Below, in pieces: positions 35,885 through 53,291 of a stretch of DNA of 53,291 nucleotides; position 1 is the first letter of the stretch, and each line of letters starts with the position of its first letter. A program made the position numbers and the translations under genes. The stretch comes from Candidatus Giovannonibacteria bacterium RIFCSPHIGHO2_01_FULL_45_24 (GTDB lineage Bacteria > Patescibacteriota > Minisyncoccia > UBA11713 > 2-01-FULL-45-33): assembly GCA_001778495.1 (NCBI GenBank), contig MFHE01000010.1, positions 1 to 53,291 on the forward strand, in the 5' to 3' direction. Below the pieces are notes generated by a model, which saw nothing but the letters and a program-made list of their open reading frames with translations, made no database searches and was not told where the DNA came from.

Positions 35885-37687
35885 TTATTTTTTAGCGTGA
35901 TAAACTCTAAAAAAATAAGAATTCTGATTCGCTAAAAGCTCGCGGGGGCTCCCCTCTTCCAAAATCCTGCCATTATCTAAAACTATAAGCCTATCGGCTG
36001 AAACAACTGTAGAGAGTCTGTGGGCTATAGTAAAAACCGTAACCCGCCCCCGCAAATTTTCAATGGCCTTTTGAATTAAAATTTCGGACTCGTTATCTAA
36101 AGAACTGGTAGCCTCATCCAAGAGTAAAATTTCAGGATGCCTAGCCAAAACTCTGGCCAAAACTACGCGCTGACGCTGACCCACCGAAAGCTGAATGCCA
36201 CGCTCGCCCACCAATGTTTTGAACTTTTCTGGCAAAGACTCAATAAAATCAAAAATATTGGCCATGCGAGCGGCTTCTATCATATCGGCATCAGTCACGC
36301 TCTCGCCGTAAAATTTTATATTATTTTCAATAGTGCCATTCATTAAAAAAATGTCTTGGGAAACATAGCCAATATTGGTTCGCCATTCCCTAAGCTTAAT
36401 GTTATAAATATCAACTCCGTCCAAAGTAATCGTGCCTCTTTGCGGGTCCAGAAGGCGCAACATAAGGTCAACAATAGTTGTTTTGCCAACGCCCGAAGGT
36501 CCGATAAGCCCCGTCGTCTCCCCTTTTTTAATGAAAAAATTGACTCTCTTAAGTACTGGTCCGTAAGAGGCGCCGTAAGCAAAATGCACATTGTTAAACC
36601 GCAAACAATCCCGGAAATTAAAATTGCGCTTGCCTAAATCCTTTTCTTTGCGCCCCAATATTTCATTCTCATATTGCATCGCCCCCCGCAAATAAGGTTC
36701 GTAAGAAATTACGGAGTGAAAAAAAGATTGCCCCTGCTGCGCTTGGGTAAAAATTTTATTAATAGCATAGACAATGACCGCAAACGAAGCCATATTAAAA
36801 CTTTGATCCGATCTGTAAAAATAAAGGAACGCTGCCATTATAAAAAAAAGACCAATGGGCTGAATAAGCGTATTGGTTAATATAGACGCCAAAGTAATTC
36901 TCACATTAAGCTCTTTCAGCCGATCGAAGTAGCTGTTGGCGCGCTCTACAATTTTATCTTTGACTTCAATGGATTTAATTGTTTTGACGCCCAAAAGGCT
37001 CTCGTTTACAAAATGCGCCACATCCTTAAAAACCACGCTCATCTCTGAAGATGCGGCTTCATTTTTTTTAAAAAAGGGCTTAAAAACATAAAAAGACGAT
37101 AGTGCCAAAACAAATGCCGCAAAAGCAATAATGGCGGATATATTGACAGCCAAAATAATGTAAATCAAAAGATTAGCGGTCACAATAATCAAACTGCTGA
37201 CATGAGAGAAAAGAGCGGAGCTGTTATTGATATAAGTTGTTAAAATCTGATCCAAGTAACCCAGTTTATGTTTCGTAAGATACGGCCAGTCTGCAAAAAA
37301 AGTTTGACTAAAAAGTAAGTTGCGCTTTCTGCGGGCAAATTCCGAGACTGTTTTTGCCGCAATGAAACTGGCCATGAAAAAAACGATGGTTTTTATCACA
37401 AAAATTGTTATAATAAACAAAATCAAATACTGCAAATTAAACGGCAGAATAAAATAATTAAAAAATTTCTCAATCATTCGTGAAACAATATCGGCGCCCT
37501 GTGCTCCATTTTTAAGAAAAGAAAAAAGAGGAATAACGGCATTTATGCCGATGCCCTCCAAAACACTGCTTAAAAAACTCAAAAGCGTGAAAGCGACAAC
37601 AGCCCACTTAAATTCGCCGAAGGCTTCGCCGAATAATCTGAATAAACCGAAAATCTTTTTACCGGCACTTTGCATTACAACCATCAA
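35885..37687 (-). CDS. ABC exporter, fused TMD-NBD (MsbA/lipid or glycan flippase type)
   Basis: 600 aa. Six-TM domain, Walker A GPSGVGKTT, signature LSVGQRQRVVLAR, Walker B LLLDEATSSLD. Confidence 0.9.
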   Translation of the reverse strand: MMVVMQSAGKKIFGLFRLFGEAFGEFKWAVVAFTLLSFLSSVLEGIGINAVIPLFSFLKNGAQGADIVSRMIEKFFNYFILPFNLQYLILFIITIFVIKTIVFFMASFIAAKTVSEFARRKRNLLFSQTFFADWPYLTKHKLGYLDQILTTYINNSSALFSHVSSLIIVTANLLIYIILAVNISAIIAFAAFVLALSSFYVFKPFFKKNEAASSEMSVVFKDVAHFVNESLLGVKTIKSIEVKDKIVERANSYFDRLKELNVRITLASILTNTLIQPIGLFFIMAAFLYFYRSDQSFNMASFAVIVYAINKIFTQAQQGQSFFHSVISYEPYLRGAMQYENEILGRKEKDLGKRNFNFRDCLRFNNVHFAYGASYGPVLKRVNFFIKKGETTGLIGPSGVGKTTIVDLMLRLLDPQRGTITLDGVDIYNIKLREWRTNIGYVSQDIFLMNGTIENNIKFYGESVTDADMIEAARMANIFDFIESLPEKFKTLVGERGIQLSVGQRQRVVLARVLARHPEILLLDEATSSLDNESEILIQKAIENLRGRVTVFTIAHRLSTVVSADRLIVLDNGRILEEGSPRELLANQNSYFFRVYHAKK

Positions 37688-38727
37688 ATTTGGTGTGAAT
37701 CTGCTTCTTTGATCAGCGCCGAAAGGCGATCCTCGGAAAGTTTGGGCGCAAATTCCGAAGAAAAACTTTTATTCCCTGCGGCTATCAACTTTGCCGGATA
37801 CTTTTCTTTGTATTCTTCCCCCACAACCTTTTCGTGCGGAGTCAAAATATACATATCCTTGGTCTCAAACGCCCGCGGCAGTTCATGGTCGGCCAGCAAT
37901 TTTTCATGTATTTTCTCGCCGGCTCTTCTGCCGACTATTTTAATTTTAATTTCCGAAGATTTTTTCCCGAACATGGGCGCGTAATGCTTCACGGCAGCTT
38001 TTGCCAAATCGGCCAAGCGCACAGCTGGCATCTTTAAAACAAAAACTTCCTGCCCGCGCATTAGGTTCGTCGCGGAGAGCACCAAGCTTGCCGCCTGCGG
38101 TATGGTCATCACAAACCTTGTCATTTTAGGATTAGTAATAGAAACGGCGCCGTTATTTTTAATCTGTTTTTTAAAAAGCGGCAAGATGCTCCCCCGGCTG
38201 CCCAAAACGTTGCCGAAGCGCACGCAAGCAAATTTTGTTTTCCGGTCACCTTTGTAATAAAAAGAGGATAAAAATAATTTCTCCGCCATAAGTTTGGAAA
38301 CGCCCAGGATGCCTTCCGGCTCGGCAACTTTGTCGGTGGAAATGCCGACCACTTTTCCTATATTTAAGTCCCGCGCGACGTCTATGACGTTCTGCGTGCC
38401 CACGATGTTCGTTTTCACGACTTCAAAAGGGTTGTATTCGCACATCTCAACCTGCTTGAGCGCGGCGGCGTGAAAAACAATGTCCACTCCTTCCATGGCC
38501 ATGCGCAAGCGGTCTTTATCGCGAATATCTCCGATAACGAATCTTAAGTGGTCGTTTTCGTGGTTGTACCCCAGATCATTCATTAAAGTGTAATGCCTGT
38601 CTTCGTGGCGCGCGAAAACGCGGATGCTTCTCGGGCTGAAATTCAAAAGCTGGCGGACGATTTCTGAACCAATTGAGCCTGTGCCGCCCGTGACCAAAAT
38701 ATTTTTATTTTTAAATTCGCTCTGCAT
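37684..38727 (-). CDS. UDP-GlcNAc 4,6-dehydratase family (PseB/LegB/CapD, Polysacc_synt_2)
   Basis: VTGGTGSIGSE, ISTDKVAEPEGILGVSKLMAEK, RFGNVLGSRGSILPLF. Confidence 0.85.
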   Translation of the reverse strand: MQSEFKNKNILVTGGTGSIGSEIVRQLLNFSPRSIRVFARHEDRHYTLMNDLGYNHENDHLRFVIGDIRDKDRLRMAMEGVDIVFHAAALKQVEMCEYNPFEVVKTNIVGTQNVIDVARDLNIGKVVGISTDKVAEPEGILGVSKLMAEKLFLSSFYYKGDRKTKFACVRFGNVLGSRGSILPLFKKQIKNNGAVSITNPKMTRFVMTIPQAASLVLSATNLMRGQEVFVLKMPAVRLADLAKAAVKHYAPMFGKKSSEIKIKIVGRRAGEKIHEKLLADHELPRAFETKDMYILTPHEKVVGEEYKEKYPAKLIAAGNKSFSSEFAPKLSEDRLSALIKEADSHQI

Positions 38728-39670
38728 TTTTTAAATATTGGCCATTAGAATAAATGGCGTTTTTTGGGTCGCGAACCCTGCCGGCCGTGATAAGCTGGTA
38801 AATTTCCCGCACGCCGTCTTCCAAACTATATCGCGGCTTCCATCCGTATGACATAAACTTTGCCGAAGAAACTTTATAATTTCTCAAGTCTTCAAATGTG
38901 ACATTATCGTGTTCAACTTTTGCATCGGGGATTATCTTTTTTATTGTATCCGCGATTTCAGAAACCTTGTAGTTCTTAGCGCTTAAATTAAATAGGCCGT
39001 TCAGGTTATTTTTTATTCCAAACAATATTCCATCCGCAGCGTCTTTGACGTGCATGAGCGGCCTCCATTGCTCGCCGCCGAAAACCGTCAAAATCTCATT
39101 AGCGGCAGCTCTTTGGGTCAGCAGATTAACGGCGAGATCAAATCTCAACCGCGCGTGCCTGTCTCCTGCGCCAAAAAGAGTGCCGAGCCGGAATATGAGA
39201 TAGTCGTTCGAACGTGCCATAATTTCTTTTTCTGCTTTCAGCTTGGTTACAGCGTAATGCGACAATGGCTTGACCTCCGACGATTCATCCAGTAAGCCGT
39301 CGTTTTTCCCGTAAACAGAGCAGGTAGAAGTATAAACTATTTTGCCCTTATAATTTCTGGTAAACCACTGAACGGCGGAGAGATTAATTTCTCTGGCAGC
39401 AGTAGGATTAATTGCGCACGCCTCATCCCCGACTATCGCCGCCAGCCAAATGACAATGTCAAAGTTGTTTATAATCCGGCCCAATTTTTCTTTATCGCGG
39501 ATATCGCCATAAATAAAATTTATATTTTTTAAGTAGCGATCTTCGTAGATAAGATTATCATAAATGGCAACGTCGCATCCTTTTTCCATAAGCAAATCGG
39601 CGAGATGTCCGCCAACATAGCCCGCACCACCGCAAATCAGCACTTTAGTTGTATTTTTTGACGGCATCAA
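38711..39670 (-). CDS. NAD-dependent sugar epimerase/dehydratase (SDR)
   Basis: VLICGGAGYVGGHL Rossmann motif and YAVTKLKAE catalytic YxxxK. Confidence 0.82.
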   Translation of the reverse strand: MMPSKNTTKVLICGGAGYVGGHLADLLMEKGCDVAIYDNLIYEDRYLKNINFIYGDIRDKEKLGRIINNFDIVIWLAAIVGDEACAINPTAAREINLSAVQWFTRNYKGKIVYTSTCSVYGKNDGLLDESSEVKPLSHYAVTKLKAEKEIMARSNDYLIFRLGTLFGAGDRHARLRFDLAVNLLTQRAAANEILTVFGGEQWRPLMHVKDAADGILFGIKNNLNGLFNLSAKNYKVSEIADTIKKIIPDAKVEHDNVTFEDLRNYKVSSAKFMSYGWKPRYSLEDGVREIYQLITAGRVRDPKNAIYSNGQYLKNAERI

Positions 39671-40763
39671 TAACTTTATTAGATATATATTTAATGTCCG
39701 GCCTCTTAAGCCCGACGTAAAACGGCAGGGCCAGCGTGCTTGCGCTCACGGTTTCAGAGATCGGATAGTCGCCGGGTTTAAATCCAAACCTGCTTCTGTA
39801 AAAACTGAAAAGGTGGATTGAAGGCAGATACGGCTTTGTCGCGATGCCCTGTTTTTGAAGGTCAAGCATGACTCTGTCGCGGTTGATATTTCTATTTTTG
39901 ATGCGGACAACGTAAACCTGCCATGTGTGGGTGTTGTGCGGATGAGTTTGAGGAGTTTGAATCAAATCTCCGTGCGGAGCCAAAAATTCATGATACCAGT
40001 CGGCAATGCTGCGCTCGCGCAAAAGAAAATCAATATTTTCAATCTGCGCAAGGCCGACGGCCGCGCTCATCTCATCCATCCGGTAGTTATAACCAAGGCG
40101 ATTATGGTCCAGCCACTGCATATTTTCGGCTCTGCCCTGATTGCGCAAACTCCTGCAAAGCCCGTAAATCCTTTTATTGCTGGTCACGATAACTCCGCCT
40201 TCGCCGGTAGTCATCTGCTTGTTCGCGTAAAAAGCGAAAACCGCCGACTCGCCGAATGTGCCCGCCATGCGGCCTTTATAGGTCGCACCCAGCGATTCGC
40301 AGGCGTCTTCTATTATTTTCAAATTGTATTTTCTGGCGATTTTTAAAATAGGAGCCATTTCCGCCGGCTGGCCGAAGATATGCACGACCAAAATCGCCTT
40401 TGTTCTTTTGGTTATCGCGCGCTCAATTTTTTGGGGGTCAATATTGTAAGTTAAAGGGTCAATATCTGCAAAAATCGGTTTTGCGCCGACATACAAAATC
40501 GCGTTAGCGGAAGCCACAAAGGAAAACGGCGTGGTTATCACTTCGTCGCCAGGGCCAATGCCAGCCGCAATCATAGCGAGATGCAGCCCCGCCGTGCCGG
40601 AGGAAACCGCGCAGGCGTATTTCGCTCCGATAAACTTCGCAAACTTATTTTCAAAGCGCTCCTGCTTTTTGCCCAAGCTTAAAATGCCGGAATTTAAAAC
40701 TTCCAGCACGTATTTCTTCTCCCGATCCGTAATATAAGGCTTGGCGCTAGGATAGCGTTTCAC
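39645..40763 (-). CDS. DegT/DnrJ/EryC1-type PLP sugar aminotransferase (PseC/LegC-like)
   Basis: 372 aa with ...FYANKQMTTGEGG... Lys motif. Confidence 0.9.
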   Translation of the reverse strand: MKRYPSAKPYITDREKKYVLEVLNSGILSLGKKQERFENKFAKFIGAKYACAVSSGTAGLHLAMIAAGIGPGDEVITTPFSFVASANAILYVGAKPIFADIDPLTYNIDPQKIERAITKRTKAILVVHIFGQPAEMAPILKIARKYNLKIIEDACESLGATYKGRMAGTFGESAVFAFYANKQMTTGEGGVIVTSNKRIYGLCRSLRNQGRAENMQWLDHNRLGYNYRMDEMSAAVGLAQIENIDFLLRERSIADWYHEFLAPHGDLIQTPQTHPHNTHTWQVYVVRIKNRNINRDRVMLDLQKQGIATKPYLPSIHLFSFYRSRFGFKPGDYPISETVSASTLALPFYVGLKRPDIKYISNKVIDAVKKYN

Positions 40764-40782
40764 TAAATATAAAACCCCCAGG

Positions 40783-41205
40783 TTAGTCTCGGGGTTTCTT
40801 GGGCAATTTTCTCAAAACCCTTGCGGGAACGCCGGCGGCAATTACATTGGACGGCAAGTTCTTATTTACAAAGCTGTGCGCGCCGACAATGGTATTTTCT
40901 CCGATTGTCACTCCGGGCATCACGGAGCTGTGGGTTCCGATGCGGCAGTTTTTTTTAAGAACGATTTTCCCTTTTTTATTGTCAATCGTAGAGTAAGAAT
41001 ACAAAGAGCAATGCGACCCTATCTGTACTTCATCTTCTATTTCCACGCCGTGCTTTGCCACTATTAAAGTGTACGCGCCGATGTCAGTGTTTTTGCCGAG
41101 TTTCAAACCTTCCGGATAGAGCACATTCCAATTATATTTAGTGGGCTTCCCGTGCACAATTTTCGGCGCCTTCCAATTTTTGAATCTTGCTTTAGTTCTA
41201 GACAT
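40783..41205 (-). CDS. Left-handed beta-helix (hexapeptide) acetyltransferase
   Basis: 140 aa with hexapeptide repeats (IGSHCSL..., IGTHSSV..., IGENTIVGAHSFV). Confidence 0.8.
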   Translation of the reverse strand: MSRTKARFKNWKAPKIVHGKPTKYNWNVLYPEGLKLGKNTDIGAYTLIVAKHGVEIEDEVQIGSHCSLYSYSTIDNKKGKIVLKKNCRIGTHSSVMPGVTIGENTIVGAHSFVNKNLPSNVIAAGVPARVLRKLPKKPRD

Positions 41206-41225
41206 ATCGTCCTCATTAGCTAACC

Positions 41226-42281
41226 CTAGTTAGAAAACATTTCCTCGCTAATCAGAGTTTCGGCTGGGATGTCTGACTTAGCCGTTTTGCCGATAATTTT
41301 ATTGAGATATTTTGGCAGCATGCCGGTTCCCGGGCGCTTGATGTCCAGATTTTCGCTGGTGAATTTTTCGCCCTTTTTAATGTCACGGGCGGCCACAATG
41401 CTTTTTCTCGCAACCGTCACGTATTGGCGCTCGGCCGGAAGAAGCTCTTTTGTGCCGCTGCCCATCATTAGCGGCACCTGCTTTACCATCGCAACCATTT
41501 CTTTAAATTCTTTTGGTTCAGTGGAGGCAATATGGTCAGGCCCATTCATTTTTCTATCCAAAGTAAAGTGCTTTTCTATCATGCAGGCGCCAAGGGCAAC
41601 TGCCGCAATGGCGGCTTGCGGCCCTACGGTATGGTCGGAATACCCCACAAGCGCGCCGAGTTCTTTCATCAAGGTCTGCATCGCGCTCAAGTTTACATTC
41701 TCCGGCGCAAGCGGATAATCGGTCGTGCAATGAAAAACCAATATCTGGTCGTTGCCTGCGCCTTTTATCGTCTCAACTGCTTCTTTTGTTTCCTCTAAAT
41801 TGGACATACCGGTTGATATAAGCATTGGTTTCCCGAACTTCGCCGCGTATTCCAAAAGCGGCAAATTGGTGAGGTCGCCCGAGCCGAATTTAAACGCGGG
41901 GACGTTGTAGGACTGAAGCAAGTCAACGGATTCCTTGCCGCCGTGCGGCGTGGAAATAAAAATTATATTTTTTTCTTTGGCCAGTTTAATCAGCGCCTGG
42001 TACCAGTCCTCTTTTAACTCCAATTTCCTCAACATCTCCAGCTGGCTTTCTTCGGCGCCAATGTTCTTTTTCTGATAATCAGCCATCTTGCCCGCTCCAG
42101 TCACAACCTGCTCGGCGCGGAAAGTCTGGAATTTCACCGCGTCCGCGCCCGCGTTTGACGCGGCGTCAATCAGCTTTATCGCCAAATCAAAATCGCCGCT
42201 GTGATTTACTCCGGCTTCGGCGATAACAAACGGCGGATTGCCGTAATTTACTTTATAGCCGCCGATAACCAGGTCTTTCAT
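41226..42281 (-). CDS. neuB: Nonulosonic acid synthase (NeuB/LegI/PseI family) with C-terminal SAF domain
   Basis: 351 aa. PPFVIAEAGVNHSGD, ADAVKFQTF, MISTGMS, HCTTDYP. Confidence 0.9.
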   Translation of the reverse strand: MKDLVIGGYKVNYGNPPFVIAEAGVNHSGDFDLAIKLIDAASNAGADAVKFQTFRAEQVVTGAGKMADYQKKNIGAEESQLEMLRKLELKEDWYQALIKLAKEKNIIFISTPHGGKESVDLLQSYNVPAFKFGSGDLTNLPLLEYAAKFGKPMLISTGMSNLEETKEAVETIKGAGNDQILVFHCTTDYPLAPENVNLSAMQTLMKELGALVGYSDHTVGPQAAIAAVALGACMIEKHFTLDRKMNGPDHIASTEPKEFKEMVAMVKQVPLMMGSGTKELLPAERQYVTVARKSIVAARDIKKGEKFTSENLDIKRPGTGMLPKYLNKIIGKTAKSDIPAETLISEEMFSN

Positions 42282-42283
42282 TT

Positions 42284-43426
42284 TTAGTAAGCGATTTGCT
42301 TAGTCAATAATTTCTGGTTAATTTCCAAATCCTCCAAAATCTTGGCGACTCGCTGGCCGGTTTTGCCGTCTCCCCAAGGGTTTTTTATTTTTTTAAACCC
42401 GGCAAGATACTTTTTATCGTACAAAGATTTTGCTATTGCTTTTTTGATTTCAGCGCGGCTGTAGCCAACATCTATAACATTGCCCCCGCGCTGGCGGCCC
42501 CGTTGTCGCGCGCCTATATTTACCACCGGCGTCTTAAAAGAAGATGACTCGATCATTGCGGCGCTTGAATTCCCAACCCAGACCGCAGCTTCCCGCTCCA
42601 GCGCCAGAAAATCTTTATGCCCCAAGCCTTTAAATATCCTGAATAGCGGATTTTTCCTTTCTTTCTCAATGACTTTAATAATTTCTCTGCCGCCGGGGTC
42701 GGCATTCGGGTAAATCGCCACAACGGACAACCCGAAAGATTTTACCGCGGCCAGAGTTTCTTTTATCTGCCTGCCAGCGTCATTAAACTCCTCGTTAACC
42801 GAGTACTGGGTTATCAAAATAATTTTTTCTTCAGGATTAAGCCCCAGCTTTTTAAAAAGTTCCGCGCGGGTCGGCAATTTCTCGTTTAAAATCACGTCCA
42901 GCGCCGGAGCGCCGACAATATGTGTTCTACATGGCTCCTCACCCATTTTTCTGATTCGCTCCGCTGATTCTTTTGTGGCCGCAAAATGTATATGCGCAAT
43001 TTTGGTAATAGCATGCCTCGCGACTTCGTCCACAGTTAAAGTTTTTTCTCCGCCGTGGATATGAGCTACTGGAACGCCGAGATAAAGCGCCGCGGCTGCC
43101 GTAAGCAGCATCTCAACCCTGTCTCCCAAAATCAAAACGATGTCGGGCATCCGTTTTTCAAAAATCGCCGCGATTTTCTTTAAAAAATCTCCGGCAAATC
43201 GTGCCATGCCAGTTCGGTCGTCTGAACTGAAAATCGCCGGAACGGCGAGCGCGGCCGGAAATTGTTTTTTGACTTCGTCAAAAGTCCTGCCGAATCTCGG
43301 CATCAAATGCATGCCGGTTGCGTAGAGCTCCAGCTTCAATTTTCTGCTTTTTTGAATGGCGCGCAAAACCGGCGTCATCAGCCCGAAGTCCGCCCGCGTC
43401 CCGGAAACATAGGCGATTTTTCTCAT
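42284..43426 (-). CDS. neuC: Hydrolysing UDP-N-acetylhexosamine 2-epimerase (NeuC/LegG family)
   Basis: 380 aa. MRKIAYVSGTRADFGLM, VLILGDRVE, AHIHGGE. Confidence 0.88.
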   Translation of the reverse strand: MRKIAYVSGTRADFGLMTPVLRAIQKSRKLKLELYATGMHLMPRFGRTFDEVKKQFPAALAVPAIFSSDDRTGMARFAGDFLKKIAAIFEKRMPDIVLILGDRVEMLLTAAAALYLGVPVAHIHGGEKTLTVDEVARHAITKIAHIHFAATKESAERIRKMGEEPCRTHIVGAPALDVILNEKLPTRAELFKKLGLNPEEKIILITQYSVNEEFNDAGRQIKETLAAVKSFGLSVVAIYPNADPGGREIIKVIEKERKNPLFRIFKGLGHKDFLALEREAAVWVGNSSAAMIESSSFKTPVVNIGARQRGRQRGGNVIDVGYSRAEIKKAIAKSLYDKKYLAGFKKIKNPWGDGKTGQRVAKILEDLEINQKLLTKQIAY

Positions 43427-43485: not shown

Positions 43486-44280
43486 ATGAAAATAACCGTA
43501 TTCACAAGCAATCAAGCGCGCCACATCTCCTTAATAGAAGATTTGGCGAAAATTGCCGACGAGGTTTACGCAGTAATAGAGTCCTTTACCGTTTTCACAG
43601 GCGAGGTAGCCGATTTTTATAATAAAACGGAAATAATGCAAAAATATTTTAGGAGTGCGGTTATTGAACCGGAAAGGCAAATTTTCGACGCGCCAAGGTT
43701 TTTACCAAAAAATGTGCGGGCGATGGTTCTCAAAGCCAGTGATTTAAGTTTATTGCCAATGGAGTTTTTGAAAGATGCACTGTATTCGGACAGATATATT
43801 GTCTTTGGATCAAGCTACATAAAAGGTCCGCTGGTTGAGTTTTTAGTCAAAAACAGAACGTACAATATACACATTGGAACCTCGCCTTATTACCGAGGAA
43901 ACTCCTGCAATTTTTGGGCTGCATATCATGGAAACTTTGATTACGTTGGCGCAACAATTCATCTTTTAAGCCGTGGCTTAGACTCGGGGGATATGCTTTT
44001 TCACGCATTCCCGGAGCAGATCGGCGATCCTCTTTTGCTCGGCATGAAAGCGGTAAAAGCCGCCCACAAAGGTTTAATTGAAAACATCAAAAACGGCAAG
44101 ATTGATAAAATGACACCCGTGCCGCAGGATAAATCTTCGCAGATAAAATATTCAAGAGGCGCGGATTTCACCGATGAGGTGGCGCGGGACTATCTGGAGA
44201 ATTTGCCCGCGCCAGAAACGGTTTTGGAAAAATTAAAAAACCGCGACCTCTCCAAATTTTTAAATCCGTATATTGGATAA
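43486..44280 (+). CDS. Formyltransferase-family protein (PurN/Fmt N-terminal-domain type)
   Basis: 264 aa. YNIHIGTSPYYRGNS (N-x-H...RG) and LDSGDMLF (Asp). Confidence 0.6.
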   Translation: MKITVFTSNQARHISLIEDLAKIADEVYAVIESFTVFTGEVADFYNKTEIMQKYFRSAVIEPERQIFDAPRFLPKNVRAMVLKASDLSLLPMEFLKDALYSDRYIVFGSSYIKGPLVEFLVKNRTYNIHIGTSPYYRGNSCNFWAAYHGNFDYVGATIHLLSRGLDSGDMLFHAFPEQIGDPLLLGMKAVKAAHKGLIENIKNGKIDKMTPVPQDKSSQIKYSRGADFTDEVARDYLENLPAPETVLEKLKNRDLSKFLNPYIG

Positions 44281-44284
44281 AAAT

Positions 44285-44308
44285 AGCGCAGTAATGAGTT
44301 ACTGCGCT
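44285..44308. terminator. Perfect 10-bp hairpin between convergent genes
   Basis: agcgcagtaa-tgag-ttactgcgct. No clear U-run. Confidence 0.5.
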
Positions 44309-44493: not shown

Positions 44494-45438
44494 TCACATT
44501 TCCATCATCTTTACAATATTGGCGTGGTCTTCTCTAGCCATTTCAAAAGCGTTGGCGTTAATCGCCCCCATTTTTGTTTTTGGAAACATATTTGAACGAA
44601 AACCGCAAATAACCCCGAGCTTTCTCAAAATCTTCAACGTGTTCTTATTATAAGAATTCACCGGATGCGCTACGGCAGCCGGGTTTTGGCCGGTGGCTCG
44701 TTTTATATGCGAGTAATTTTTTTTATACTCGTCAAATTGCTCTTTAAAAGACAAATCCGCAAGCGACGTTGGATGAGAATAAGAATGCAGCCCTATAACG
44801 TGTCCGCTGTCGTTAAGATATTTTAAATCTTTATTGGACATCCATAAGCTCTTTGACATCTCTTTTTTATTCAGACCACGGTCCTTTAAAATGGCATCCA
44901 TTATTTTTTCATAATTATCTTTCCTTAAGACCTTATCGCGCAAAAAACGGAATCGGACATCGTTTGCGGAATAAAACGGGAAGTCTGCCAGCATTTTCTT
45001 CTCAACTTCCGGGTCTGCCTCCGTGGCAATTCCGAATTCAGAAACTTTTTTAAAAAATAATTGATAAAAATCATCTATGTTATCAAAATATTTTACCCGG
45101 AAAAATCTATAGAGCTCCAAATTCTCCAGTCTTCCTTCAAAAACGCCGGAGTAGACAAACCAGAAAGCTTTAAGGCCGTATTTCTCCAGCACAGGCAAAG
45201 CGATCTCTGTTTGGCATAAAAGCGCGTCGTCGAAAGTCAGGCAAACATCCCCGTTCTTTAATTTATTTTCTTTCAACCTTTTTAACCACTCGAGCGGCGG
45301 CAAAATTCTTTCGAGACCGATGTAATGCAATAGATCATTGAGGTCGTCGGCGGAAATGGCGCCTTGCCCCCATGGATGCGCTTCATTGTAAAAGTGATGG
45401 AACATAATTCCATGCGGAATTTTTTTTGGATACGCCAT
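44494..45438 (-). CDS. Polysaccharide deacetylase (NodB-homology) family protein
   Basis: Track ORF trimmed to MAYPKKIP (ATG at 45438). CLTFDDAL and GLHSYSHP motifs present. Confidence 0.8.
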   Translation of the reverse strand: MAYPKKIPHGIMFHHFYNEAHPWGQGAISADDLNDLLHYIGLERILPPLEWLKRLKENKLKNGDVCLTFDDALLCQTEIALPVLEKYGLKAFWFVYSGVFEGRLENLELYRFFRVKYFDNIDDFYQLFFKKVSEFGIATEADPEVEKKMLADFPFYSANDVRFRFLRDKVLRKDNYEKIMDAILKDRGLNKKEMSKSLWMSNKDLKYLNDSGHVIGLHSYSHPTSLADLSFKEQFDEYKKNYSHIKRATGQNPAAVAHPVNSYNKNTLKILRKLGVICGFRSNMFPKTKMGAINANAFEMAREDHANIVKMMEM

Positions 45439-45443
45439 AGATT

Positions 45444-46577
45444 TTAACCAAAATAGCTTTCCAGCTTGCTTTCTCTGACCGTGTCCAGTGTGCTGCAATG
45501 GATGCCGCCCATGTAATAAGAATGCCTGAATCGAATAGGGACCGGGGTAATTTTATGTTTTTTTAAAAGATTAATTAAAGGAACCTGCCACTCATCAACA
45601 ATTACCGTATTCAGATCCACCGAAAGTATGTTCATGCCAATCCAATCCGATGCCATAGAATCAAGACTAGATTGAATGCCCAGAGACGCAAGCTCTTTGT
45701 GAACCTTTTTGCGAACGTCTTTGTGAAATTTTACGGTTGATTCCGGCGCAGGAACAATATCCGTGAAATAAATTTTCTCCCATGAATTTAAAACCGAGGG
45801 ACAAGTCTCCGGCGACACCCTTGTTGCATTAAGCAAAACCAGCCCAGGGCGAAGAGCCAAAACGGTTGAGTCAATATGGCTTGAGCGGTAAATTTTTTCA
45901 GTCGTATGAACCCGATATTCATTGCCCAGAACGCTTTGAAGCCATTTTGCGCCGAGATTATTGCCGGATCTGGATACAAGATAAAGCAAATCTTTGCCCA
46001 TTCTCACTGTATTGGCGGCCTCAAAAAGGATTTCGTCTTCGGTTAATTTTATAAATTTCTGCCCGTCTTCATACTCATTTTTTTCGCCATCATAGTAAAT
46101 AATCATGTGATTACCGGCAAGTCTCGGCTTCGGCCCGGCAATCCAGCGAAACCCTTCTTTGAAATATTCATACCAAATATCATACAGACCAAAAGCCTCA
46201 AAATATCTGTGCTTTTCTTGAGACGGCGACTCAATAACGGTATTTCCGACCACAAGATGAAGATCTCTCATATTGTAACAATAGTCGCCCGCAGCCCGGA
46301 AATAAGGCGTGGCAAAAAAACTGTTTACATGCGATGTTTCCGGCCGATATACTTTTATACCAAATGATTTGAGCGTGTTGCTCAACCCCTCTAAATCTTC
46401 ATTTATTTCATCAATCAACCATTTAGGCGACGCTTCGCGCGCCAAGCGGTTTGCTTTTTTCAAGAGATCCTCCGAAATCTGTCCGGGCGCCGTAAACAAA
46501 AGCGGCGCTTGTCCCTCCCCGCGGCCCACAACAATTTCCCGAAGCTTGTCCCATTCATTATGGCTGTTAATTTTCAT
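45444..46577 (-). CDS. Amidinotransferase-family protein (glycine/inosamine amidinotransferase-like)
   Basis: Track ORF trimmed to MKINSHNEWDKLREIVVG (ATG at 46577). SSHIDST and C-terminal GGIHCSTLD catalytic-Cys motif present. Confidence 0.75.
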   Translation of the reverse strand: MKINSHNEWDKLREIVVGRGEGQAPLLFTAPGQISEDLLKKANRLAREASPKWLIDEINEDLEGLSNTLKSFGIKVYRPETSHVNSFFATPYFRAAGDYCYNMRDLHLVVGNTVIESPSQEKHRYFEAFGLYDIWYEYFKEGFRWIAGPKPRLAGNHMIIYYDGEKNEYEDGQKFIKLTEDEILFEAANTVRMGKDLLYLVSRSGNNLGAKWLQSVLGNEYRVHTTEKIYRSSHIDSTVLALRPGLVLLNATRVSPETCPSVLNSWEKIYFTDIVPAPESTVKFHKDVRKKVHKELASLGIQSSLDSMASDWIGMNILSVDLNTVIVDEWQVPLINLLKKHKITPVPIRFRHSYYMGGIHCSTLDTVRESKLESYFG

Positions 46578-46585
46578 ATTATTTT

Positions 46586-47818
46586 TTAACGATTCTCTAT
46601 TGGTTTGTAAGCGATGAAATCCGCGTGGCGCACGCCGCAAGCGCCCTTAAAAAGAACTTCTGTTTTTTCGATAAACTTGCGCAGTTTCTTCAAGTCAGAT
46701 GTATAAACCAAGCTAACAAATTCGTCGGCTTCCCCAAGAGCTCGCAGGAGTTTCTCGCGAAGGGGCTGGAGAAAATTCAGCGCGTCGGACGACTTTGCCA
46801 ACGCGCGCGATAATTCTTGAAAACGGCCGGCATCGAGCTTGGTATTTTTATTGAAGTTCGCCACATATGATGTAATGTTTGCAAGCGCCGCCGCAAGCGG
46901 ATTCAGCCCGCTCATGAATTTGGGGAAGGCCTTGCTATCCGATTCTGTCTGCAACATCCATACCAATTCAGTAAGCGCGCCAAGATTAGCCAGATTAGAT
47001 ACCGATGCCGCATCAAACTTTGGCTGGTGATGCTGCGAATCCCCGCGAAGCGGCACGGCAAATAGAGGATATGACGAATACAAGCGCAAACCGCCACTCT
47101 TCATCCAACCCACAACTTCCGCAACCGAAGAGTCGTCCTGGGATTGAATCACCCATCTGTCAAAAATGATGGCGCGGCGCGTGCGAGGAATAAACTTCTC
47201 ACTGCGGTCAATGTCTTCTTTAAAAAGAAATTCGCAAACTTTCACCATTTCGTCTGGTGTTGAAGCAAAATGATAGACGGCGAAACGCTGCAGCATGTTC
47301 TGGAATCCCCCAGCTTTATTCGGGTCTCCGAAAATCAAAAATCCGCCCGGTTTGACCATCCTCGCGATTTTTTGGAAAGCAGCTTCCTTTGCCGCGGTAT
47401 GCGAGAGAACAGCCCTGCAATGAACAATGTCGTACAGCTTGCCGCTCTCCGGGCTATAATCAAAGATTGATGAACAAATAAAAGTGTGGTCGTCAAAATT
47501 CCGCGCGTATTTTTTAAACACCTCTTTTGAGATGCTCTGCGCTTTGGGATTCATTTCAACAAGCGTGCATTTGGCGCCCCAGCTTGCAAGATACACGGTA
47601 TTTTCCCCCGTTCCCGCCCCGAAGTCTATGAGTTCCGCGCCGCGAAACATTTGCGGAGGGAATTTGAACAGCTCTCTGTAAACAAATTCGGCGTTCCTTA
47701 CATAATCCCTATACGCGGCTTTATTTTTGTGGGAAAAGTATTGCGAAGGAATTTCTTCCTGAAAAGTCTTGAGGGTCTCGCTTTCTGTTTTCTTAATCTT
47801 GCCTTTATTGAGAATCAT
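46586..47818 (-). CDS. Class I SAM-dependent methyltransferase with a long C-terminal helical extension
   Basis: LIDFGAGTGENT motif I. Confidence 0.75.
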   Translation of the reverse strand: MILNKGKIKKTESETLKTFQEEIPSQYFSHKNKAAYRDYVRNAEFVYRELFKFPPQMFRGAELIDFGAGTGENTVYLASWGAKCTLVEMNPKAQSISKEVFKKYARNFDDHTFICSSIFDYSPESGKLYDIVHCRAVLSHTAAKEAAFQKIARMVKPGGFLIFGDPNKAGGFQNMLQRFAVYHFASTPDEMVKVCEFLFKEDIDRSEKFIPRTRRAIIFDRWVIQSQDDSSVAEVVGWMKSGGLRLYSSYPLFAVPLRGDSQHHQPKFDAASVSNLANLGALTELVWMLQTESDSKAFPKFMSGLNPLAAALANITSYVANFNKNTKLDAGRFQELSRALAKSSDALNFLQPLREKLLRALGEADEFVSLVYTSDLKKLRKFIEKTEVLFKGACGVRHADFIAYKPIENR

Positions 47819-48555
47819 TTTTGGCCGGGAGTAATCTCTAAAAAGTAGAACTGGTGGAGTATTTGCGTTCCGTTGATGATGGCGCGTTCGCCGTTTTCAA
47901 GCTTAAAAGTCCATGATCGCAGGGGGTCGTCCTTATGCCGCGGAATATCGATTCCTATAACGAAGCGATGAAAGGCGCCCTTCGCGCCTCGTTTGCGCAA
48001 ATGTTCAAGTACTGTTTTCTGCGAAAACACATTCCATCCGCGCTGATAGCGCGAACCGGGCTTTGCATAACGCACGCGCATAACCACATCAACATCCTCG
48101 GGATTGAAAAGCCCATCGACAAATATATGGCCATTGGGTTTTACCAATCGAAGTAAATTATCTAACCAAGAGCCAACATCATCAAATATGCTATGCACAG
48201 CCAGAAGAAATACCGCGTCAAATTTACTTTTTGGCAGTCCTTTCCCCGTATAAATATCGCCGCGTATATAACTTGCCTGCAGCACCTCGCGTTTTGCCAG
48301 TTTCAAAAGCGCGGGCACAACATCCAATCCGGTAAGCGAGGCATTTGGATAGAGCGCGCGCAGATAGTGGAGAAAGTCGCCGGACGCGCAGCCGACATCC
48401 AATATTTCGGGGCGCGTAAGTGTCCGCAAATGACGATCCGCAATCCGCATTATTGACTTAAACTTCTCCTTAACTTTAAGCTTGCGATTTTCGCTTAAAT
48501 ATAATTTATCGTGCTCTCGAACAACTTTTTTAGTAAACGGGTTTCGCGTACTCAT
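47815..48555 (-). CDS. Class I SAM-dependent methyltransferase
   Basis: ILDVGCASGDF motif I. ATGA-type overlap with the downstream gene. Confidence 0.8.
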   Translation of the reverse strand: MSTRNPFTKKVVREHDKLYLSENRKLKVKEKFKSIMRIADRHLRTLTRPEILDVGCASGDFLHYLRALYPNASLTGLDVVPALLKLAKREVLQASYIRGDIYTGKGLPKSKFDAVFLLAVHSIFDDVGSWLDNLLRLVKPNGHIFVDGLFNPEDVDVVMRVRYAKPGSRYQRGWNVFSQKTVLEHLRKRGAKGAFHRFVIGIDIPRHKDDPLRSWTFKLENGERAIINGTQILHQFYFLEITPGQK

Positions 48556-49550: not shown

Positions 49551-50433
49551 ATTTTTTCAAATACTCTATATTTCTAACATCCCGAACGGCTTCATCCCAA
49601 TTAGAAAAATACTTGCCGCTTCTTATTAAACCGACGAAAAAATTAATTTCTCTGTGATACATCCTGCCGCGGTCTTCGGCGTCTGAAGAATCCCAGATTA
49701 AACTGCCTTCAGAACCCATGATTTCCAGAAACCTTCTGCTGGGAATTCTTAAATAATCTTGGTGCACGGATACAATGGCTCCGGTTTTTTTGCCGACAAA
49801 AATGCTTTCAGCAAAGTCTTCTGTATCTATTTTAAGATTAGATAGTTTTCTGACATACGATCGCTGCGGCATCAAAGCATCATCCAAAAGCCAAGCCGGA
49901 TAATTAATATCGTGCACCAAATCCAGCAAGACCCCTCCGCCCATCTTATTTTTGGCGGAATAAATTTTTCTATAATCTCGCCCCGGGCGCCACTCTCGTA
50001 AATCTTGGCCAACGGAAACGCGCATATAGTAGATTCTGCCGAATTTGCCGCTTTTTATATTTTTTTTAATTTTAATAAATGGGGCAAAAAAATGAAAATT
50101 GTATCCAACCCAAACGCTGATTTTTTTTCGTTTTAACGTTCTGCCAAGCGCTATTAAGCCACGAGAACTGTGGGCCAGCGGCTTTTCTACAAAAATAACT
50201 TTCGGTCTTAACGCAATACATTTTTTGATCGTTGCCGCATGCTTATACGTTTCATTCGCGACAACGATGCCTTCATAAGGACCGCCGTTGGCAAAATCGC
50301 GCCAATGTTTAACTTGGCGCGACAAATCAACGTCGTCTCTTTTAGAAAACACTACGACATTTTTTTTATATTTATTCAAATTTTTATAATGTCTTTGGCC
50401 TATTGAGCCAAAGCCGATTATGCCAATTTTCAT
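49540..50433 (-). CDS. Gfo/Idh/MocA-family oxidoreductase
   Basis: MKIGIIGFGSIGQRH, and ...VFVEKPLA. Confidence 0.8.
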   Translation of the reverse strand: MKIGIIGFGSIGQRHYKNLNKYKKNVVVFSKRDDVDLSRQVKHWRDFANGGPYEGIVVANETYKHAATIKKCIALRPKVIFVEKPLAHSSRGLIALGRTLKRKKISVWVGYNFHFFAPFIKIKKNIKSGKFGRIYYMRVSVGQDLREWRPGRDYRKIYSAKNKMGGGVLLDLVHDINYPAWLLDDALMPQRSYVRKLSNLKIDTEDFAESIFVGKKTGAIVSVHQDYLRIPSRRFLEIMGSEGSLIWDSSDAEDRGRMYHREINFFVGLIRSGKYFSNWDEAVRDVRNIEYLKKYGG

Positions 50434-51638
50434 TGTTTTATTATAAAAGTAACTTCGCCAGAAAGTAAATATTTGCCGTTCTCCGGTTGATGATTCGCGG
50501 AGAGTTTAATGTTTTTTAAAATTGCCTTGTTTTCGCCCCAACGATCAGCCAAAACCGCGAACTTCTCGTCTTTAAATCTCCGATAATCACGTTCCCGAAT
50601 ACCAAAATAGATTGAATTAGCCGGACCAATTTTAGTCAGAGTATTATCATCAACTCTTATGAATTTCAGTCCGGCGGCTTCGGCATTAAAAAATAATCTG
50701 CCGATATAAGGATTTTCGGGCCTCAAAACAAAATCAACGTATGCCTTGATAACTTTTTTAGCTGTGTATTTAAATAAGTTGTTTATAGGGGCGAGGACTG
50801 GTTTTAGATAAAACATTTTTTTAAATCTTGCGAAGCAATATTCTCCAATAGAACTTCTTGCGGAATTTATAGAAGAATTGTAGTTAAAATACTCGCACCC
50901 CGGAGCAATAGCTTTCATAATTTCTTGCTTGTAGGGACTTTTTGTAAAAAGTTTCCGCACAGGATAATAGTTATCGTCTTTAGCTCCGGGAATCTTAACT
51001 GCCCGCTCAAAATAGGCAGAGTCGTTTATGCCCAAAAAGTTAAACATCTTGGAGATAGAATTTCCGGCATCGTAAACGATATTTTCGTACCGGGTTAGAG
51101 TCCAATTCTCGTTTTTATATTTTAAATAAAGATCAATGCACTCCTTCCAAGAATGTGCCGCACGTAGCAGTAGATCGTCCGGCAGCGAAAGGACTGTCTT
51201 TGTAAACAAAAGATATGTCTCGGTGCCGCCCAAAGTCATAGATTGAAAATTGTGCCAAGGATTGCGCACAATAAACACAAAAAGCGCATCAGGAAACATT
51301 TCTTTAAAAAACGGCACGCGAGCGATATGATCTGGCGACTTAATAACCAATCGCTTGCCGCCCGCCAACGAGAGATAGATGCGTCTTACGCGCTCTATGG
51401 CATTTTTATCAAAAATCGGAACTGCGAGTTGCGGATCGCCTTTTGCATCCCATTTTTCAAAATCAAAATTATCCCACCAGATTTGCGTGTCAGTGGTATT
51501 TGATTTATCTTCAGGCACAACCCCGCCTTTAACCTTATGATCAGTAATTAAAAAGTGGCCGTTCTTGCCCCCAAGAATCCTAGCCAACATGCTTGTCCCA
51601 GAATTGGCGCAACCCAAGATAATGATGGGCGGCTTCAT
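50430..51638 (-). CDS. Sulfotransferase-family protein
   Basis: 5'-PSB-like IIILGCANSGTSML and 3'-PB-like VRNPWHNFQS. Confidence 0.62.
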   Translation of the reverse strand: MKPPIIILGCANSGTSMLARILGGKNGHFLITDHKVKGGVVPEDKSNTTDTQIWWDNFDFEKWDAKGDPQLAVPIFDKNAIERVRRIYLSLAGGKRLVIKSPDHIARVPFFKEMFPDALFVFIVRNPWHNFQSMTLGGTETYLLFTKTVLSLPDDLLLRAAHSWKECIDLYLKYKNENWTLTRYENIVYDAGNSISKMFNFLGINDSAYFERAVKIPGAKDDNYYPVRKLFTKSPYKQEIMKAIAPGCEYFNYNSSINSARSSIGEYCFARFKKMFYLKPVLAPINNLFKYTAKKVIKAYVDFVLRPENPYIGRLFFNAEAAGLKFIRVDDNTLTKIGPANSIYFGIRERDYRRFKDEKFAVLADRWGENKAILKNIKLSANHQPENGKYLLSGEVTFIIKQ

Positions 51639-52364
51639 TTATTTAAAACTTTTGATTTCTTTAGTCAGTTTGTCTTTGTGTTTATAAAGATATTCTGCCA
51701 AAACCCAGTCTTCCGGAGTATCTAAATCAACCGACCGCCACTTGTCGCAAATCACGGCTCTTGTATCGCTGGTAAAAATGTCTTTTTCTTTAAGCAACGC
51801 GGACGTTTTTACAATATATACGAAACAGCCGTTTAAAATGTACGCCTTGCGCCATTGCTGGACGTTAGACGGCAACTTGCCTCCGGGACTGTTAGCCAAA
51901 ATGATTTTATTCTGCGCGTCCAGATAATAAAGGCGCGGATGCGTAGAACACACGGTAAGAACGGTCGTGGCGCCGCTTTCTTTTATAAATTCCCAGCATT
52001 CATTAATGTCCTTTTGTTCGCGGAGCGGCGAGGTTGTGTGTAAAAATATTACGTATTCCGGTTCGCATCCTTCTTCTTTTTTTAATCTCTTTAAAAAATA
52101 AACGGCCGAATCATTCACGCTGGCTTTGTCCGCAGCCAAACGCTTGGGGCGCAAAAATGGCGCTTCCGCTCCGTATTTTTTCGCAATCGCCGCAATTTTA
52201 GGGGAATCCGTGTCCACAACCACTCTGTCAATAAAAGAATTTTCTTTTGCCTGCAAAATCGTATGCGCAATCAAAGGTTTGCCAAAAAAATTCCTGATGT
52301 TTTTATTGGGAATGCGTTTAGACCCCCCCCTCGCGGGAATAATAGCCAAGAGTTTTTCTTTCAC
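51639..52364 (-). CDS. neuA: CMP-nonulosonic acid synthetase (acylneuraminate cytidylyltransferase family)
   Basis: LAIIPARGGSKRIPNKNI N-terminal motif. Confidence 0.9.
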   Translation of the reverse strand: MKEKLLAIIPARGGSKRIPNKNIRNFFGKPLIAHTILQAKENSFIDRVVVDTDSPKIAAIAKKYGAEAPFLRPKRLAADKASVNDSAVYFLKRLKKEEGCEPEYVIFLHTTSPLREQKDINECWEFIKESGATTVLTVCSTHPRLYYLDAQNKIILANSPGGKLPSNVQQWRKAYILNGCFVYIVKTSALLKEKDIFTSDTRAVICDKWRSVDLDTPEDWVLAEYLYKHKDKLTKEIKSFK

Positions 52365-52379
52365 GCTTTTAAAACTTTT

Positions 52380-53291
52380 TTAACTGACTTGATGTTTCAA
52401 TTTCCACTCTCCGTCCGGCAGACGCTTCCATAAATGCGGCGACTTAAATTCGTCGGCTAATTTCATAAAATATTCTCTGTTCATCACAGGGTAATCAAAC
52501 ATTTTAACGACCTTTGGCGAAAAATCCTTTTCCGTAATGCTTAAATACCGAAAAAGTTCGTCCTCAAATCTTGCGGGATATTCTCCGTCAAATCTTCTCA
52601 CAAGCGATACCCCCTCATCACGCGTTATATCGCCAGATCTTATTTCCTGCGCCGCATCCCAAGTCGCGCGTCCTATGCCAAATTTTATGAACATTGTGTA
52701 AAAATTCAAGTCGTCCATTTTATCATCAATGCTGGTATATTTTCCGTATGTTCCCGGGCTTCGTTCCGGGGCAGCCTGAAAGCCGCCGTGTTCTACCGCG
52801 TAATAATAACAGGATTGCGGATGCCACTTTAAATAATATCCCAGATAATGCACCTCCAAAGCGATTTTTTCCATTCTTGCCGGATCGGCTGGAAAATACG
52901 GCTGAAGATCGTTATCTGAAATATCATAGCGCTGTTTAAAATCTGCTACGGATACGCCGCCTAAATAAATTTTAGATTGATCTTTTGCCGTGAAATAAGA
53001 TCGGTCGCGTTTGGCAGTGGACATATCTGCAATTGGATTGCCGTATTCAGCTTCGTTCTCGCCGTAAAAAACCAAGGGGATATTAAAAGATACGGCTAAT
53101 TTTGGCGGGAGGGATTTTTGGCCCAAAATAAAAGGCTGAAACGGATGAAACAGTTTTTCAAGAGCCAAACGGGTAAGCAGGCGATGCGCGCGGCCGTTTG
53201 GAGTATGCAGATAATTGTCAAAACCGGCGTGGAGCCATGCTTGAAAATTTTTCCATCCCCAATCGGTATAAAGATGCGGCGCCCAAGTTAC
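52380..53291 (-). CDS. N-acetyl sugar amidotransferase (WbpG/PseA/PtmG family), 5'-truncated by the window end
   Basis: The frame stays open from 53168 to 53291 (…VTWAPHLYTDWGWKNFQAWLHAGF…). C-terminal region HYLGYYLKWHPQ…IDDKMDDLNFYT…GDITRDEG is family-typical (recalled). Confidence 0.78.
   Translation of the reverse strand, partial: VTWAPHLYTDWGWKNFQAWLHAGFDNYLHTPNGRAHRLLTRLALEKLFHPFQPFILGQKSLPPKLAVSFNIPLVFYGENEAEYGNPIADMSTAKRDRSYFTAKDQSKIYLGGVSVADFKQRYDISDNDLQPYFPADPARMEKIALEVHYLGYYLKWHPQSCYYYAVEHGGFQAAPERSPGTYGKYTSIDDKMDDLNFYTMFIKFGIGRATWDAAQEIRSGDITRDEGVSLVRRFDGEYPARFEDELFRYLSITEKDFSPKVVKMFDYPVMNREYFMKLADEFKSPHLWKRLPDGEWKLKHQVS

Follow-up and report, generated by a model that had tools for sequence, protein, structure and literature searches.

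A predicted arginine-type amidinotransferase cassette in a nonulosonic acid locus of Candidatus Giovannonibacteria

The Cassette and Its Genes

The gene discussed here encodes a predicted arginine-type amidinotransferase of Candidatus Giovannonibacteria bacterium RIFCSPHIGHO2_01_FULL_45_24 and lies on contig MFHE01000010.1 (assembly GCA_001778495.1), of which positions 1 to 53,291 were analyzed; this whole stretch of 53,291 nucleotides is called the window below. The gene stands between those of a methyltransferase and a de-N-acetylase, inside a locus for nonulosonic acids (NulOs), and the cassette formed by the three genes probably swaps an N-acetyl group for a positively charged (methyl)guanidino group. 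Its features are as follows.

44285–44308, minus strand: terminator-like hairpin with a 10-bp stem and a T tail, 3' of the deacetylase gene
44494–45438, minus strand: NodB/CE4-type de-N-acetylase, 314 aa (PF01522, E = 3e-19; TFDD and HSYSH motifs intact)
45444–46577, minus strand: amidinotransferase P0001, 377 aa, read from the ATG at 46577 to the TAA ending at 45444 (assigned by PDB alignments, conservation, structural model, fold search and tree)
46586–47818, minus strand: MT410, a class I S-adenosylmethionine (SAM) methyltransferase of 410 aa with an uncharacterized C-terminal half (profile and homologue searches)

The three genes form one tightly packed predicted operon, with 8 nt between the stop of MT410 and the start of the amidinotransferase and 5 nt between the TAA of the latter and the ATG of the deacetylase; the hairpin is the probable end of this tailoring operon. 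The original prediction had recognized the deacetylase correctly but placed the amidinotransferase after it, whereas in the direction of transcription the amidinotransferase comes first. Longer TTG-started versions of both open reading frames (ORFs) were rejected: that of the amidinotransferase, to 46640, overlaps the upstream gene and its homologues start at the ATG, as do those of the deacetylase, whose longer frame would reach 45498.

The deacetylase has the marks of the NodB/CE4 family, namely the TFDD motif, the H-S/T-x-x-H motif and a deformed (beta/alpha) barrel, and its metal-binding and catalytic residues (D70, D71, H218 and H222) are invariant in 31 homologues. Its model (predicted local distance difference test, pLDDT, 90.3) finds the de-N-acetylases PplD, PgaB, IcaB and BpsB as best Foldseek matches and carries a helical insert at about residues 97–195. 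No signal peptide or membrane anchor is apparent in the N-terminus, as judged by reading the sequence, and the protein is most likely cytoplasmic. MT410 is weakly similar to both N- and O-methyltransferases.

Family Assignment of the Amidinotransferase

The three motifs on which the family signature had been proposed, NEWDKLREIVVG (residues 7–18), SSHIDST (232–238) and GGIHCSTLD (357–365), are all present. Phmmer searches of the PDB matched the protein over its full length to StrB1 (E = 2.8e-68), SxtG (1.1e-54), HsvA (7e-45) and AGAT (4e-44), so that, by these alignments, its similarity to the StrB1/AGAT family is far above chance level. An AlphaFold2 model built from 64 homologues (pLDDT 95.2, predicted template modeling score 0.93) shows the five-fold pseudosymmetric beta/alpha propeller of StrB1 and AGAT. 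Foldseek places these same four enzymes at ranks 1–7 in the PDB (E = 6e-38 to 1e-30, template modeling (TM) scores 0.76–0.87), while dimethylarginine dimethylaminohydrolase (DDAH) and arginine deiminase (ADI) match only at about 1e-11 with TM scores of about 0.5, that is, 20 orders of magnitude more weakly. The protein falls in the transferase branch, as had been predicted, and not among these hydrolases.

Pfam and NCBIfam scans of the protein gave no match even at E = 10. This silence is a gap in the libraries and not counter-evidence; the family was established by searching the PDB by sequence and by fold. Compared with StrB1, the enzyme carries a 32-aa insert (residues 276–307), modeled as a long helix and a short strand. 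By sequence and model, the gene is assigned as a StrB1/AGAT-family arginine-type amidinotransferase (EC 2.1.4.x, guanidino-group-modifying superfamily), and it probably moves the amidino group of l-arginine onto a primary amine, releasing ornithine.

Active Site and the Glutamate Variant

The active-site residues were mapped through alignments to AGAT and StrB1, whose residue roles (triad, guanidinium binders, binders of the donor carboxylate and amine) are those reported in the structure papers of the two enzymes. The nucleophile Cys361, in the GGxHC motif, aligns with StrB1 C332 and AGAT C407, and His234 with StrB1 H227 and AGAT H303. Asp105 and Asp236 correspond to the AGAT guanidinium binders D170 and D305, and Arg253 and Ser310 to R322 and S355, which hold the carboxylate and the amine of the donor. 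All six residues are invariant in 120 of 120 close homologues.

The original prediction expected a Cys-His-Asp triad. The Cys and His are there, but the acid is Glu186 (in FEAAN), at the position of AGAT D254, where StrB1, SxtG, HsvA and AGAT have Asp (FDAA[ND]). Glu occupies this position in all 120 close homologues and Asp in 83 of 97 distant cluster representatives. On alignment, Glu186 is a conservative variant of the catalytic acid and not a loss, leaving the predicted triad Cys361-His234-Glu186 intact. ADI and DDAH, which are hydrolases of the same superfamily, use Cys-His-Glu.

The Surrounding Nonulosonic Acid Locus

The remaining features of the locus are listed below.

37684–43426, minus strand: core legionaminic-type pathway, comprising a PseB-like 4,6-dehydratase, a short-chain dehydrogenase/reductase (SDR), a DegT aminotransferase, a hexapeptide acetyltransferase (40783–41205), a NeuB-family synthase and a NeuC-type hydrolyzing 2-epimerase
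43486–44280, plus strand: sugar N-formyltransferase-like gene, convergent with the deacetylase gene
47815–48555, minus strand: second SAM methyltransferase, 246 aa, outside the conserved cassette (found in 3 of the 47 related loci described below)
50430–51638, minus strand: Sulfotransfer_3-family gene inside the tailoring operon
51639–52364, minus strand: CMP-nonulosonate cytidylyltransferase
52380–53291, minus strand: WbuX/WbpG/PseA-type N-acetyl sugar amidotransferase, acetamidino-forming, cut by the end of the window (TIGR03573, E = 8e-54)

That this is a NulO locus, as had been claimed, is borne out by NeuB (TIGR03569, 437.7 bits against a cut-off of 399.65) and NeuC (TIGR03568, 392.7 bits against 235.9), both above their NCBIfam cut-offs, and by matches to PF02348, PF02719 and PF01041 together with the hexapeptide acetyltransferase. 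All the genes expected of a legionaminic-type locus are found: synthase, 2-epimerase, CMP-transferase, 4,6-dehydratase, aminotransferase and N-acetyltransferase. By gene content the locus is legionaminic-type, a class that covers the legionaminic acid (Leg), 8-epi-Leg or other stereoisomer alike. The WbpG-type enzyme noted earlier is likewise confirmed, and genes for HisH and HisF follow it on the contig. The minus-strand order of the tailoring genes is WbuX-type amidotransferase, CMP-transferase, sulfotransferase, two Gfo/Idh/MocA oxidoreductases, the 246-aa methyltransferase, MT410, amidinotransferase and NodB deacetylase. The core genes come downstream of these, in the order NeuC, NeuB, hexapeptide acetyltransferase, DegT, SDR and PseB-like dehydratase. 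The best PDB relatives of the formyltransferase-like protein are TDP-3-aminoquinovose N-formyltransferase, PseJ and WlaRD.

The sulfotransferase of the window occurs in none of the 47 related loci, although one sulfotransferase lies at the end of locus L064; a sulfated sugar might be possible.

Related Loci Across Phyla

One genome from each GTDB species was scanned with a sequence pattern. This gave 47 loci, which span phyla of the candidate phyla radiation (CPR), a DPANN archaeon, SAR11, Prochlorococcus, Acidobacteriota, Planctomycetota, Chloroflexota, Spirochaetota and others. Their neighboring genes were typed within 10-kb flanks by tblastn with the proteins of the window, together with Pfam checks. 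The Glu-type enzyme is encoded by 43 of the 47. A PF01522 deacetylase accompanies it in 40 of these 43 loci: in 33 the two genes stand side by side, in 7 more they are no further apart than one gene or 2.4 kb, and either of them may come first. MT410 is found with the Glu-type enzyme in 26 of the 43 loci, either adjacent to it or with just the deacetylase in between. Of the 27 Glu-type loci in which a synthase was found, 26 have a NeuB/LegI-like one accompanied by NeuC, and the co-occurrence with NeuB-family genes, which the original prediction had proposed to examine, is strong across phyla. Seen from the deacetylase, all three homologues sampled adjoin an amidinotransferase, one of them directly after a PglD-like acetyltransferase.

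Two Glu-type enzymes from Acidobacteriota, 57–58% identical, are encoded outside any NulO context (L026:9968-12254 and L028:9968-11176). In the former locus, an ornithine carbamoyltransferase gene comes after the amidinotransferase gene, which has large Ig-repeat surface proteins at its flanks. This setting suggests a different acceptor or ornithine recycling, and the ornithine carbamoyltransferase fits a turnover of arginine to ornithine.

In a locus from Pirellulales (L014:4181-16002), the cassette is followed by genes for a CMP-transferase, a Wzx-like flippase, a polysialyltransferase-like protein and GT4 glycosyltransferases, a neighborhood that suggests that the modified sugar enters a polymer. 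A PglF-like membrane dehydratase is also encoded there, and no aminotransferase was found within 21 kb.

A single-protein scan of viral contigs found only two distant relatives (32–34% identity), both outside the clade described in the next section. A distant amidinotransferase on a putative viral contig from IMG/VR (L061:185-3897) is 34% identical and has a PIG-L-type deacetylase about 2 kb away.

Phylogeny, the Asp/Asn Subclade and Gene Fusions

In a maximum-likelihood tree, the NulO-linked enzymes form one clade of 55 rows on a long stem, with a support of 100 in the Shimodaira–Hasegawa-like approximate likelihood ratio test (SH-aLRT). The tree disagrees with the organismal phylogeny, which indicates horizontal transfer together with glycan islands. 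The best explanation of the sequence data is a distinct, horizontally mobile amidinotransferase clade that is dedicated to NulO pathways.

Nested within this clade is a subclade of eight rows (SH-aLRT 100) that have Asp at the triad-acid position, except for a single row with Asn. All seven of its independent loci are of the pseudaminic acid (Pse) type: the gene lies beside PseI, usually in the order PseI, amidinotransferase, PseF, and genes for PseB, PseC and a PseG-like protein are nearby. Within the stretches read, these loci have no NodB deacetylase and no acetyltransferase; the absence of PseH rests on precomputed Pfam labels and the fetched stretches, tblastn with the hexapeptide acetyltransferase being too insensitive.

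Two natural fusions occur. The amidinotransferase–methyltransferase fusion P0272 (L052:3081-8606) follows NeuB directly, in a locus that also encodes a formyltransferase, a B12 radical-SAM enzyme and a deacetylase of the PIG-L/LmbE family instead of NodB; from this gene content, a non-orthologous PIG-L enzyme seems to have taken the place of the NodB deacetylase. The fusion of an ATP-grasp domain to an amidinotransferase, P0271 (L053:10001-12163), comes directly after PseI in a Pse-type locus and is the protein with Asn at the triad-acid position, owing to which it may be catalytically altered.

In one locus (L048:8450-9528), the gene of the PseI-like synthase, which neighbors an Asp-type amidinotransferase, is broken into two ORFs of 222 and 133 aa; this may reflect a frameshift or an assembly error.

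Comparison with Known Systems

StrB1 of streptomycin biosynthesis (PDB 1bwd) is the closest characterized relative in both sequence (about 45% identity, estimated by eye from the alignment) and fold (E = 6e-38, TM scores 0.80/0.87). It is an l-arginine:inosamine-phosphate amidinotransferase, and the amine that it modifies belongs to the ring of a polyhydroxylated, anionic carbocycle. It shares with the window enzyme the Cys, the His, the guanidinium-binding Asp pair and the donor-binding Arg and Ser; both also have small residues before the catalytic His, where AGAT has an Asn-Pro-Met flap. Unlike the window enzyme, StrB1 has Asp179 in place of Glu186, lacks the 32-aa helical insert and works in an actinomycete aminoglycoside pathway, with neither a deacetylase partner nor a NulO context.

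AGAT, SxtG and HsvA have the same fold and the same covalent Cys-amidino mechanism, but their acceptors are glycine, a saxitoxin intermediate and polyamines, respectively, and their triad acid is Asp. The pair of AGAT and GAMT in creatine synthesis, an amidinotransferase followed by a SAM methyltransferase, has the logic proposed here for the amidinotransferase and MT410, although no relation of MT410 to GAMT was detectable.

PseA, WbpG, WbuX and PtmG, together with PtmH, are functional analogues, since through them the acetamido group of a NulO becomes a cationic substituent of the amidine type, which is then N-methylated. The locus of the cassette itself has a WbuX-type gene together with HisH and HisF. 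The PseA/WbpG-type enzymes differ from it in having an unrelated fold and in requiring ATP and glutamine; they act on the intact acetyl group with no deacetylation, and their product is an acetamidino group (a C-methyl amidine), not a guanidino group.

The leg cluster of Candidatus Kuenenia stuttgartiensis (bioRxiv 10.64898/2026.04.20.719630) resembles the window in pairing a deacetylase with a formyltransferase, and it shows that an acetyl group can be replaced by another N-substituent; no amidinotransferase has been reported for it. In the window the partner is the PseJ-like formyltransferase, and the two pairs are likened by description, not by deacetylase subfamily; no Kuenenia-named sequence is among the top 120 matches of the window deacetylase.

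Proposed Pathway

The transferase placement and the co-occurrence data support the guanidino sugar of the original prediction, with acceptor, position and product inferred. The reading favored here, with somewhat more confidence than doubt, is that deacetylation, amidination from arginine and possibly methylation yield a guanidino nonulosonate. The NodB de-N-acetylase would take one N-acetyl group off the legionaminic-type sugar after the NeuB condensation, acting on the free or the CMP-activated form. Removal at this late stage is probable because the acetyltransferase, the NeuC-type epimerase and the NeuB-type synthase need the acetyl group. The amidino group of arginine would then be loaded on Cys361, ornithine would leave, and the group would be passed to the exposed amine to give an N-guanidino nonulosonate. 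Arginine as donor and ornithine as by-product fit the invariant donor-binding residues as well as the Acidobacteriota homologue encoded beside an ornithine carbamoyltransferase. Finally, MT410 may methylate the guanidino group, as PtmH does with acetamidino groups or GAMT with guanidinoacetate. The NulO as acceptor, the position modified, the stage of action and the site of methylation are all predictions from genes.

Read most simply, the two types of loci point to an amidinotransferase that depends on a free amine of the di-amino sugar. In Leg-type loci, this amine would be acetylated for the NeuC and NeuB steps and later uncovered by the deacetylase, while the amine made by PseC in Pse-type loci may not receive an acetyl group at any stage. 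N7 is modestly favored as the target, given that the Asp-type sister clade lies in Pse loci with no visible PseH acetyltransferase, and the PseC-derived amine is reportedly the one that the formyltransferase PseJ formylates. If N5 is the target instead, action on a form locked at C2 is the likelier, since a free 5-amino NulO whose keto group is open lacks chemical stability.

A precedent for unmasked amines comes from Candidatus Kuenenia, in which CMP-NulOs with one amine formylated and the other free are reported and whose leg cluster has a deacetylase and a formyltransferase, so that de-N-acetylated NulOs do exist at the level of the CMP-sugar (bioRxiv 10.64898/2026.04.20.719630). The masses predicted for guanidino NulOs, 334.1488 Da for C12H22N4O7 and 348.1645 Da for C13H24N4O7, are not in the text of this SugarBase preprint (bioRxiv 10.64898/2026.04.20.719630).

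In agreement with the original prediction, which knew of no guanidino N-substituent on Leg/Pse-type sugars, no paper was found in the literature searched that connects nonulosonic acids with amidinotransferases or guanidino groups, and the literature that pairs guanidino terms with legionaminic, pseudaminic or nonulosonic terms concerns, by its titles and abstracts, other subjects. The kind of enzyme is known; for the predicted sugar decoration, no description was found in the literature searched.

A broader proposal, held with belief and doubt in equal measure, is that natural N-guanidino (and N-methylguanidino) NulOs are widespread on uncultured microbes (CPR, DPANN, SAR11, Prochlorococcus) and made by a dedicated clade, the Glu-type enzyme working with NodB in Leg/Neu loci and the Asp-type enzyme replacing PseH in Pse loci.

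Alternative Explanations

Several observations weigh against a guanidino nonulosonate. The product and the activity of the clade are predicted from genes, and the triad acid is unlike that of every characterized amidinotransferase, a difference that may affect the chemistry. Three Glu-type loci (two Acidobacteriota, one SAR11) have no deacetylase, the two from Acidobacteriota being those outside a NulO context, and MT410 is missing from 17 of the 43; its similarities, moreover, do not settle N- versus O-methylation. Structurally solved CE4 enzymes act mostly on polymers or lipid-linked glycans and not on free or CMP-linked monosaccharides, and the formyltransferase-like enzyme is a possible second user of the exposed amine.

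It is unlikely, though worth keeping in view, that the cassette modifies another amino sugar of the surface glycan, such as N-acetylglucosamine (GlcNAc) or another hexosamine in free, nucleotide-linked, lipid-linked or polymerized form, and so yields a guanidino hexosamine. PplD, PgaB, IcaB and BpsB, the closest structural relatives of the deacetylase, act on GlcNAc residues in glycans, no NeuB lies within the 10-kb flanks in 16 of the 43 Glu-type loci, and some loci contain other amino-sugar genes. Yet the N-terminus of the deacetylase, as read, offers nothing that would export or anchor it, most loci with enough flank do have NeuB and a CMP-transferase, and the gene positions directly between PseI and PseF (Asp type) and directly after NeuB (the methyltransferase fusion) tie the enzyme to NulO synthesis. 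That the deacetylase instead serves the neighboring formyltransferase in an acetyl-to-formyl swap, with the amidinotransferase as unrelated cargo of a mobile glycan island, is quite improbable: the two genes abut and the Kuenenia cluster has such a pair, but a formyltransferase-like gene is rare, occurring in about 1–3 of the 47 related loci, against a deacetylase in 40 of 43 Glu-type loci with varied gene order, and the deacetylase is translationally coupled to the amidinotransferase on the strand opposite to the formyltransferase.

The acceptor and the chemistry may also be read differently. AGAT-type enzymes usually use small amino acids, amino-acyl N-substituents are known on Leg and Pse, and P0271, encoded in a Pse locus, joins an amidinotransferase to an ATP-grasp ligase, all of which would suit an acceptor that is a small amino acid or an aminoacyl side chain on the sugar (a glycyl or alanyl N-substituent), with the deacetylase only freeing the nitrogen for the acyl group. 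This is nevertheless improbable, as the Glu-type cassette has neither a ligase nor an acyltransferase as a conserved companion, the ATP-grasp fusion falls in the other subclade, with Asn in place of the triad acid, and StrB1, the closest characterized relative, uses the ring amine of an aminocyclitol phosphate. A changed chemistry, in which the Glu variant acts as a hydrolase or deiminase on a guanidino or amidino group, for example trimming an acetamidino or guanidino substituent, would account for Glu where all four structurally characterized amidinotransferases have Asp and where ADI and DDAH have Glu. It is very improbable indeed, for sequence and fold stand firmly with the transferases, the residues that bind the carboxylate and amino groups of arginine/ornithine are invariant, and a switch of the acid inside one functional clade is possible, as the nested Asp subclade demonstrates.

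Significance

NulOs are the outermost, charge-bearing sugars of many microbial surfaces and govern recognition by phages, grazers and immune systems. If the guanidino nonulosonate is real, its guanidino group would add a further kind to the N-substituents acetyl, formyl, acetamidino and the acyl groups, and the sugar would be conceptually near zanamivir, the synthetic 4-guanidino sialic acid analogue. Because guanidinium is protonated at any physiological pH, such a NulO, otherwise anionic, would be permanently zwitterionic. Low-resolution surveys could have missed it, since guanidino is almost isobaric with acetyl (a difference of 0.0112 Da). The switch between Glu and Asp offers, in addition, a natural experiment that bears on what the triad acid does in amidinotransferases. 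The points that the present analysis contributes include the division into Glu and Asp types in step with a Leg or a Pse context, the mapping of the donor residues, the fusions, the PIG-L displacement and the Kuenenia precedent.

SAR11 and Prochlorococcus, the most abundant bacteria of the sea, have the cassette, as do tiny episymbionts, so that the modification could matter globally for phage–host and cell–cell interactions. The amidinotransferase gene is single-copy in a Giovannonibacteria metagenome-assembled genome of 531 kb in 14 contigs (GCA_001780675.1). Although this genome, about 90% complete, measures no more than 531 kb, well over 25 kb of it is given to the one NulO cluster and its tailoring genes.

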